Made by a program: the position numbers and the translations under genes
In this document: in pieces, positions 9,228-9,569 of the stretch
Numbering within the stretch: the stretch's first letter is position 1
Layout of the letters: every line of letters starts with the position of its first letter
Notes under the pieces: model-generated
Seen by the model: the letters and a program-made list of their open reading frames with translations, nothing else
What the model was told of the DNA's origin: nothing
The model's database searches: none
Assembly (NCBI RefSeq): GCF_006345805.1
Contig: NW_021827488.1
Span: 1 to 10,227, forward strand
DNA from: Octopus sinensis
Taxonomy: Eukaryota
Length of the DNA stretch: 10,227 bases
Direction of reading: 5' to 3'

Positions 9228-9500
9228 ATTTACTGGGGTAGTATTTACAACCGGTATTTTCAACTCTAGATATACTCTACTGAGGATTAGAAAATGATTA
9301 TGTAAGTAAAATTACACAATCTATTAACGATGAAACAATTGTACAGAGTTAATCTATTTTTTCGTTATTTTTCATTCGTCTTGCCCGCTTACCTTCTTGG
9401 CGTGTTGAGTAATACTTGAGAATAATTATTTAGTCGTGGATTCCTTTGCGGATCTATTTCTAGCGTTAGAGTGACCACATGTGGTCTCTCTTATTACTTG
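9228..9500 (+). mobile_element. Short hammerhead-bearing module between (TA)n tracts
   Basis: ~270-bp unit with sharp (TA)n borders, containing the 9274-9349 motif and a subterminal palindrome at 9468-9491. Confidence 0.6.
9274..9349 (+). ncRNA. Minimal type-I hammerhead ribozyme-like motif, core intact
   Basis: ACTCTA (9274-9279) - CTGAGGA (9280-9286) - stem II with GATTATGTAA/TTACACAATC hairpin - GAAAC (9332-9336) - palindromic AATT - GTA (9341-9343) - CAGAGT (9344-9349, pairing 5/6 with ACTCTA). Confidence 0.72.
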
Positions 9501-9516
9501 TATATATATATGTATA

Positions 9517-9569
<53 letters not shown>

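Follow-up and report, generated by a model that had tools for sequence, protein, structure and literature searches.

Results

The locus and its surroundings

The window, that is, the whole stretch of 10,227 nucleotides that was analyzed, is AT-rich with a GC content of 0.26–0.44 and contains many (TA)n and other microsatellites. The TA tracts are dense, and 31% of the window positions have one at most 160 nt downstream. No recognizable gene lies in the window: none of 121 stop-to-stop frames gave a Pfam match above the curated cut-off, and the matches obtained were weak (E = 0.011–0.047, all below the cut-off). In total 131 frames had been kept; 10 of them, mostly microsatellite-rich, were outside the Pfam scan. 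Matches to a reverse transcriptase or a GIY-YIG domain were absent among the same 121 of 131 frames, and ARAGORN found no tRNA in the window.

Several repeats are recognizable. Two copies of a dispersed repeat of about 400 nt, at about 3771–4185 and 7716–8125, are 89–96% alike and contain an internal (CA)n/(TA)n tract; we take this repeat to resemble an octopus SINE. An inverted repeat at 780–962, with arms of 86 nt which are 88% complementary and 11 nt apart, looks like a foldback or MITE-type element. Two GC-richer stretches at about 7010–7240 (plus strand) and about 8930–9150 (minus strand) have a SINE-type look by eye, and ARAGORN detects no intact tRNA in them.

The hammerhead motif at 9274–9349 sits in a fragment of about 270 nt (9228–9496) between two TA tracts. 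The fragment is composed as follows.

9207–9226, (AT)n tract bordering the fragment 5′
9228–9264, plus strand, 5′ head of the repeat; in relatives apparently followed by other sequence (about 145 nt) without counterpart in the window copy
9267–9271, plus strand, distal part of stem I, 5′ strand; pairs with 9352–9356 (probabilities 0.62–0.70)
9274–9279, plus strand, stem I, 5′ strand; A9279 is position 2.1
9280–9286, plus strand, 5′ half of the catalytic core, C3-U4-G5-A6-N7-G8-A9 = CUGAGGA
9287–9331, plus strand, stem II domain of 45 nt with U-U at 10.1/11.1, three basal positions, internal loop and distal hairpin
9288–9290 and 9328–9330, plus strand, basal stem II positions, the middle one unpaired in the window copy
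9296–9321, plus strand, distal hairpin of stem II, arms 9296–9305 and 9312–9321, loop of 6 nt
9332–9335, plus strand, 3′ half of the catalytic core, G12-A13-A14-A15.1 = GAAA
9335–9342, plus strand, perfect 8-nt palindrome with inner AAUU; as a monomer a 2-pair stem III with a 4-nt loop, in two copies an 8-pair duplex
9341–9343, plus strand, GUA triplet, G16.2-U16.1-A17
9343, plus strand, position 17; predicted cleavage between 9343 and 9344
9344–9349, plus strand, stem I, 3′ strand; C9344 is position 1.1
9352–9356, plus strand, distal part of stem I, 3′ strand
9357–9496, plus strand, 3′ tail of the repeat, which also runs into (TA)n in relatives
9501–9568, (TA)n tract bordering the fragment 3′

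A preliminary description of this DNA had proposed a hammerhead from the letters CUGAGGA, GAAA and GUA. We checked these base by base and all are in place, such that the letters C3–A9 and G12–A14 of a type I core are complete. A15.1-U16.1 and a base other than G at position 17 are both present, the relatives described below showing A or U there. The same description placed the cleavage 3′ of 9343, and indeed position 17, the predicted site, is A9343 of the GUA triplet. Its palindromic AAUU loop is the centre of the perfect palindrome 9335–9342, which provides a short self-complementary stem III predicted to be able to pair between two copies. The layout is that of a type I hammerhead located 158 nt from the 3′ TA tract, a distance at which 31% of random positions are as close.

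The five-pair stem I and the hairpin of nine out of ten pairs in stem II, both described before, are also found. In stem I 9274–9278 form Watson–Crick pairs with 9345–9349, and A9279 is opposite C9344, the A-C mismatch next to the core that had already been noted. Beyond a 2 × 2 internal loop stem I is extended by five more pairs, which are absent from the preliminary description. The outer two pairs of this extension (9267–9268) may be special to the window copy, as judged from several relatives which align only from 9269. In the distal hairpin of stem II A9300 is opposite C9317 and the pair probabilities are 0.84–1.00. Positions 10.1 and 11.1 are U9287 and U9331, and the usual G10.1-C11.1 pair is absent.

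Relatives of the repeat fragment

Parts of the fragment were found in 24 sequencing runs of four organisms, and we compared the contigs of four of these (X1, X3, X4 and X13, one per organism) at 80% likeness. All four runs show the fragment to be a member of a multi-copy family, the aligned records numbering 77, 149, 176 and 31. One contig of X1 is identical to 9230–9319 at a depth of 3.6, and the summed depth over 9300–9380 is 1400–2700; this contrast fits a multi-copy family, the depth itself being no copy number. Behind 9491 the loose contig ends lead into TA repeats in X1 (five records) and X4 (six records) but not in X13 (three records).

The 5′ part of the family appears to be longer than that of the window copy. 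A 272-nt contig of X13 contains the joint 9264 to 9269 and matches 9269–9360 with five differences from its position 181 onwards; X13 also has loose ends behind 9264 and before 9269. From this one contig we infer that the family has about 145 nt between 9264 and 9269 which are missing from the window copy, and that the family unit would be about 410 nt long. In each of the four runs 9228–9264 and 9443–9496 have separate coverage, and their loose ends lead into other sequence; 9417–9434 has coverage in X3 alone. The repeat ends 9228–9264 and 9443–9496 seem to be common to several subfamilies.

The letters of the relatives bear on the pairs of the motif. Position 9344 is U in the majority of the summed depth (73% in X1, 82% in X3, 79% in X4 and 58% in X13), which closes stem I to six out of six pairs. 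Since the family majority has U at this position, the A9279-C9344 mismatch is likely decay in the window copy. At 9343 the alternative letter U accounts for 14–27% of the depth and gives an allowed triplet, and G is not among the listed letters. The exchange of A for G at 9330 (6–33%) keeps a wobble pair with U9288. At 9329 G is replaced by A in 2–5% of the depth in three runs and in 52% in X13, and a basal pair of stem II would then be lost. Neither 9332–9342 nor 9280–9286 has an alternative letter at 8% or more in the relatives, the 5′ core half being thinly sampled at about one-fifth or less of the depth of the 3′ half. The only loose end showing the 5′ core half, from one X13 contig, lacks the base at 9300 and has U at position 7 and C both at 9289 and in place of U4; that copy is thus damaged too. 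The listed differences inside the motif appear mostly to respect the hammerhead. Only six positions vary in the well-covered part, however, and conservation of the core is therefore inseparable from the general homogeneity of the family.

Predicted folds

Folded as a monomer (9262–9362) the window copy hardly forms stem III (probability about 0.02), and its basal stem II pairs are all absent. For the stretch 9269–9354 stem III reaches 0.17, and with the palindrome held unpaired the basal stem II pairs and the 2.1–1.1 pair are at 0.00. Two traps are predicted for both stretches, namely pairing of CUGA with 9287–9290 and of 9327–9331 with 9338–9342, with probabilities of 0.47 and 0.73 in 9269–9354. 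A9289 remains unpaired opposite G9329 at the base of stem II and lets 9287–9290 pair with the CUGA of the core. When two copies are folded together the palindrome pairs with probabilities of 0.70–0.76, the duplex having −6.4 kcal/mol, and stem I of the window sequence does not form.

We then introduced letters of the relatives. The majority letter at 9344 by itself closes stem I but leaves the CUGA trap in place. When U9344 is combined with C9289, the latter letter coming from one contig end, and the palindrome is kept unpaired to mimic its engagement in trans, the fold of lowest energy is the hammerhead junction. This fold has the six-pair stem I, the U-U at 10.1/11.1, three basal stem II pairs at 0.66–0.71 and the 2.1–1.1 pair at 0.67.

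The window copy is thus predicted to misfold. The preliminary description had considered a weak or dead copy, or one that depends on dimers formed through the palindrome, and both the predicted folds and the letters of the relatives support this. It had further counted the missing G10.1-C11.1 pair as a weakness. The pair is indeed absent, as U9287 and U9331 show; that it is a defect did not hold, because U-U is found at this place in 14 of 25 Hydra-clade Penelope hammerheads and in an axolotl hammerhead which cleaves, and we regard it as a described variant rather than as decay. According to the folds A9289 is the likelier cause of inactivity.

Chance controls and model searches

No site of the window other than 9274–9349 combines the two exact core halves with a stem I. 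One other pair of core halves, at 6464, has at most two of six stem I pairs. The combination of core, 8-nt palindrome and at least five of six stem I pairs, a descriptor written after the site had been seen, did not occur in 3000 dinucleotide shuffles of the window, nor in 3000 shuffles with the microsatellites removed. A looser motif of the core and any palindrome alone occurred in 687 and 829 of 3000 shuffles (23–28%). A scan of viral contigs, which served as chance control only, gave 120 loci, 109 of them distinct; one of these 109 loci with both core halves and the palindrome had five of six stem I pairs.

Two results speak against a hammerhead. No Rfam hammerhead model matched the whole window or 9228–9495 at E values of up to 10, the sub-threshold matches being mostly of miRNA models to microsatellites, and the folding z-score of 9274–9349 is only −1.25. 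For the stem II domain 9287–9331 the z-score is −2.30. A metagenome scan with a 25-letter motif had no match. With a 19-letter motif 76 loci were obtained, none of which aligned past about 36 bases, and we rejected them as chance matches.

Other hammerhead-like sites in the window

There are three more decayed hammerhead-like sites of other sequence, each 27–99 nt upstream of a TA tract. The first, at 506–550 on the minus strand, lies in a fragment (about 427–608) between two TA tracts and shows GAAA, a GUA triplet and a palindrome of 8 nt centred on AGCU; G12 is at 517 and position 17 at 506, and the candidate 5′ core at 550–544 is damaged. The second, at 4212–4315 on the minus strand, is another candidate with a long stem II. 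Its core at 4315–4309 has U4 changed to C, GAAA is at 4223, about 85 nt separate the core halves, and its palindrome of 8 nt is again centred on AGCU. The site folds with a z-score of −2.65 and lies 27 nt from a short TA tract. The third, at 5118–5145 on the minus strand between the TA tracts 5010–5019 and 5213–5240, is a minimal hammerhead-like site with a 4-pair stem I, an extra A past position 9, a 4-pair stem II closed by G-C and a 4-nt palindromic stem III. Its core carries U6 and G15.1, so that the site is either decayed or a variant of the core. An alignment of the four sites has a mean column identity of 47% with the 9274–9349 site out of register; they are therefore different families.

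Discussion

We consider it probable that 9274–9349 represents a type I hammerhead motif within the 3′ portion of a short multi-copy repeat flanked by (TA)n, which likely derives from a Penelope-like element, and that the window copy is inactive, as predicted. No twin of the copy is present within 10 kb, two of its pairs are damaged, and it is thus likely dead. Since no reverse transcriptase or endonuclease gene was found in the 121 frames scanned, we only infer the Penelope origin.

For an intact member of the family we suggest the following course. The transcript would fold into a six-pair stem I and a long stem II whose base is U-U. In a monomer stem III is too short to be stable, and two copies would therefore pair through the 8-nt palindrome. 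The paired transcripts would then cut 3′ of the position that corresponds to 9343. By analogy with published related motifs (PMC4209133, PMC6765202), the cut could free the RNA of the element from a longer transcript. An autonomous Penelope-like partner elsewhere in the genome would supply the reverse transcriptase and the endonuclease.

Could the family instead be a retrozyme-like non-autonomous element? Here a unit of about 400 nt would carry a hammerhead of canonical geometry, with a 6-pair stem I with internal loop and a basal stem II of about four pairs, that cuts multimers into linear and circular monomers. The inferred unit of about 410 nt is within the range of 150–450 bp given for such elements (PMC7229834), stem I has an internal loop after six pairs, and in the axolotl hammerhead HHR_Amex2 helix II likewise begins with U-U, helix III has two pairs and the dimer cleaves better (PMC7229834). 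The window, however, holds no tandem array of the unit. Moreover, the four runs compared yielded no joint from the 3′ end to the 5′ start, although contigs show presence and not absence, and in X1 and X4 the 3′ ends enter (TA)n. We therefore think a retrozyme-like element unlikely.

It is very unlikely that the window copy itself still cleaves, be it slowly as a monomer or in trans with a transcript of the family, in which case it could affect a host transcript that reads through. All core letters are intact, GUA is a natural and working triplet (PMC1636495), and the palindrome equals that of the family majority such that trans pairing would be possible. Yet an A-C stands directly beside the cleavage site, the basal stem II pairs are absent and two traps are predicted; further, the 10-kb window contains neither a second copy nor a recognized host gene.

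That the repeat is real and its likeness to a hammerhead mere chance in AT-rich DNA, as the lack of an Rfam match, the weak folding z-scores of −1.25 and −1.05, the frequent loose core matches in shuffles and the one viral locus with an equal stem I score might indicate, is hardly credible, because the full motif is absent from the shuffles, the letters of the relatives mend exactly the broken pairs, and stem II begins with U-U / U-A in published hammerheads of Penelope elements as well (PMC8557442).

A type I hammerhead in a Penelope-derived repeat, our preferred reading, could also be extended. The family could be an undescribed and still active non-autonomous retroelement family of about 400 nt in related animals, likely octopods, and one of several families with a long stem II which cut as trans-dimers, possibly with circular RNAs, the site at 4212–4315 being a second candidate; the 45-nt stem II would then hide the hammerhead from Rfam and standard descriptors. 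In this full form the proposal appears improbable to us. Should the family still produce cleaved or circular RNA, it would offer a natural model for the control of ribozymes by trans-dimers. Hammerheads that combine a long stem II with a U-U base escape Rfam here, and also core searches with spacers of 7–17 nt (PMC8557442); hammerhead counts in repeat-rich genomes may thus be too low.

Comparison with known hammerheads

In a search of mainly openly accessible literature for hammerheads in Octopus or cephalopods we found no description of the family. Recently active Penelope families are known from Octopus vulgaris (PMC13282606); the main text of that report does not mention hammerheads, and its supplements may hold the family described here.

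The closest likeness is to the Hydra-clade Penelope-like elements, which carry a type I hammerhead near their 3′ end and are nearly all inserted in (TA)n (Craig et al. 2021, PMC8557442, File S2). Their proteins have the motifs RWK and DKT and a CxCX5C linker, and no CCHH motif (PMC8557442). The octopus hammerhead shares with theirs the type I layout, the 3′-terminal location, the (TA)n surroundings, the base of stem II, which is often U-U and then U-A, and the short self-complementary stem III. The U-U at 10.1/11.1 occurs in 14 of the 25 Hydra-clade families by our count from File S2, two of the 14 rows being the same sequence (PMC8557442). In contrast to the Hydra-clade rows, the stem II domain of the octopus motif is far longer with its 45 nt, stem III is a perfect 8-nt palindrome and not mostly a near-palindrome of 9 or 10 nt, and the octopus repeat is known here without a coding part (PMC8557442).

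We rejected the octopus family Hydra-1_Obim as a parent element, as its 3′ sequence is different by eye (PMC8557442). An origin from the ‘half-core’ of Naiad was rejected for now, Naiad_Ovul and the 3′ end of Naiad_Obim being unlike by eye (PMC8557442). Eight short motifs of the fragment or its relatives had no relevant match in the supplement of PMC8557442, in which line breaks can mask matches.

The minimal hammerheads of metazoan Penelope-like elements are abundant in animal genomes, have a palindromic helix III, are inactive as monomers and have a low activity when dimeric (PMC4209133). Like these minimal or atypical hammerheads (Cervera and De la Peña 2014, PMC4209133), the octopus motif would belong to dispersed single copies from truncated elements, and it shares with them the small palindromic helix III, the larger helix II and the predicted low-activity work as a dimer. 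Unlike them it lacks the G10.1-C11.1 pair and the extra base between positions 9 and 10.1, both of which are conserved there. Its stem I has six pairs and an extension, whereas 4–5 pairs with a poorly defined loop are described in PMC4209133, and in the octopus window no reverse transcriptase–endonuclease gene was seen flanking the motif, in contrast to the elements of that study.

The axolotl HHR_Amex2 of the non-LTR retrozymes cleaves as a monomer to 22% in 1 h and better as a dimer (Cervera and De la Peña 2020, PMC7229834). The octopus motif resembles it in the U-U at the base of helix II and in the 2-pair helix III, which in HHR_Amex2, too, carries a tetraloop. Retrozymes are tandem repeats that give circular RNAs (PMC7229834), whereas here we have a single unit bounded by (TA)n, with a long stem II and known from DNA. 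A long and interrupted helix II has a precedent in one hammerhead of Table 1 in PMC1636495.

Dimer-type hammerheads have been reported by the thousands from animal Penelope-like elements; the octopus repeat adds one more family to them, and its weight is accordingly modest. In summary, the window holds a likely dead copy of a dimer-type hammerhead of a known kind, the unusually long stem II being its only odd trait.
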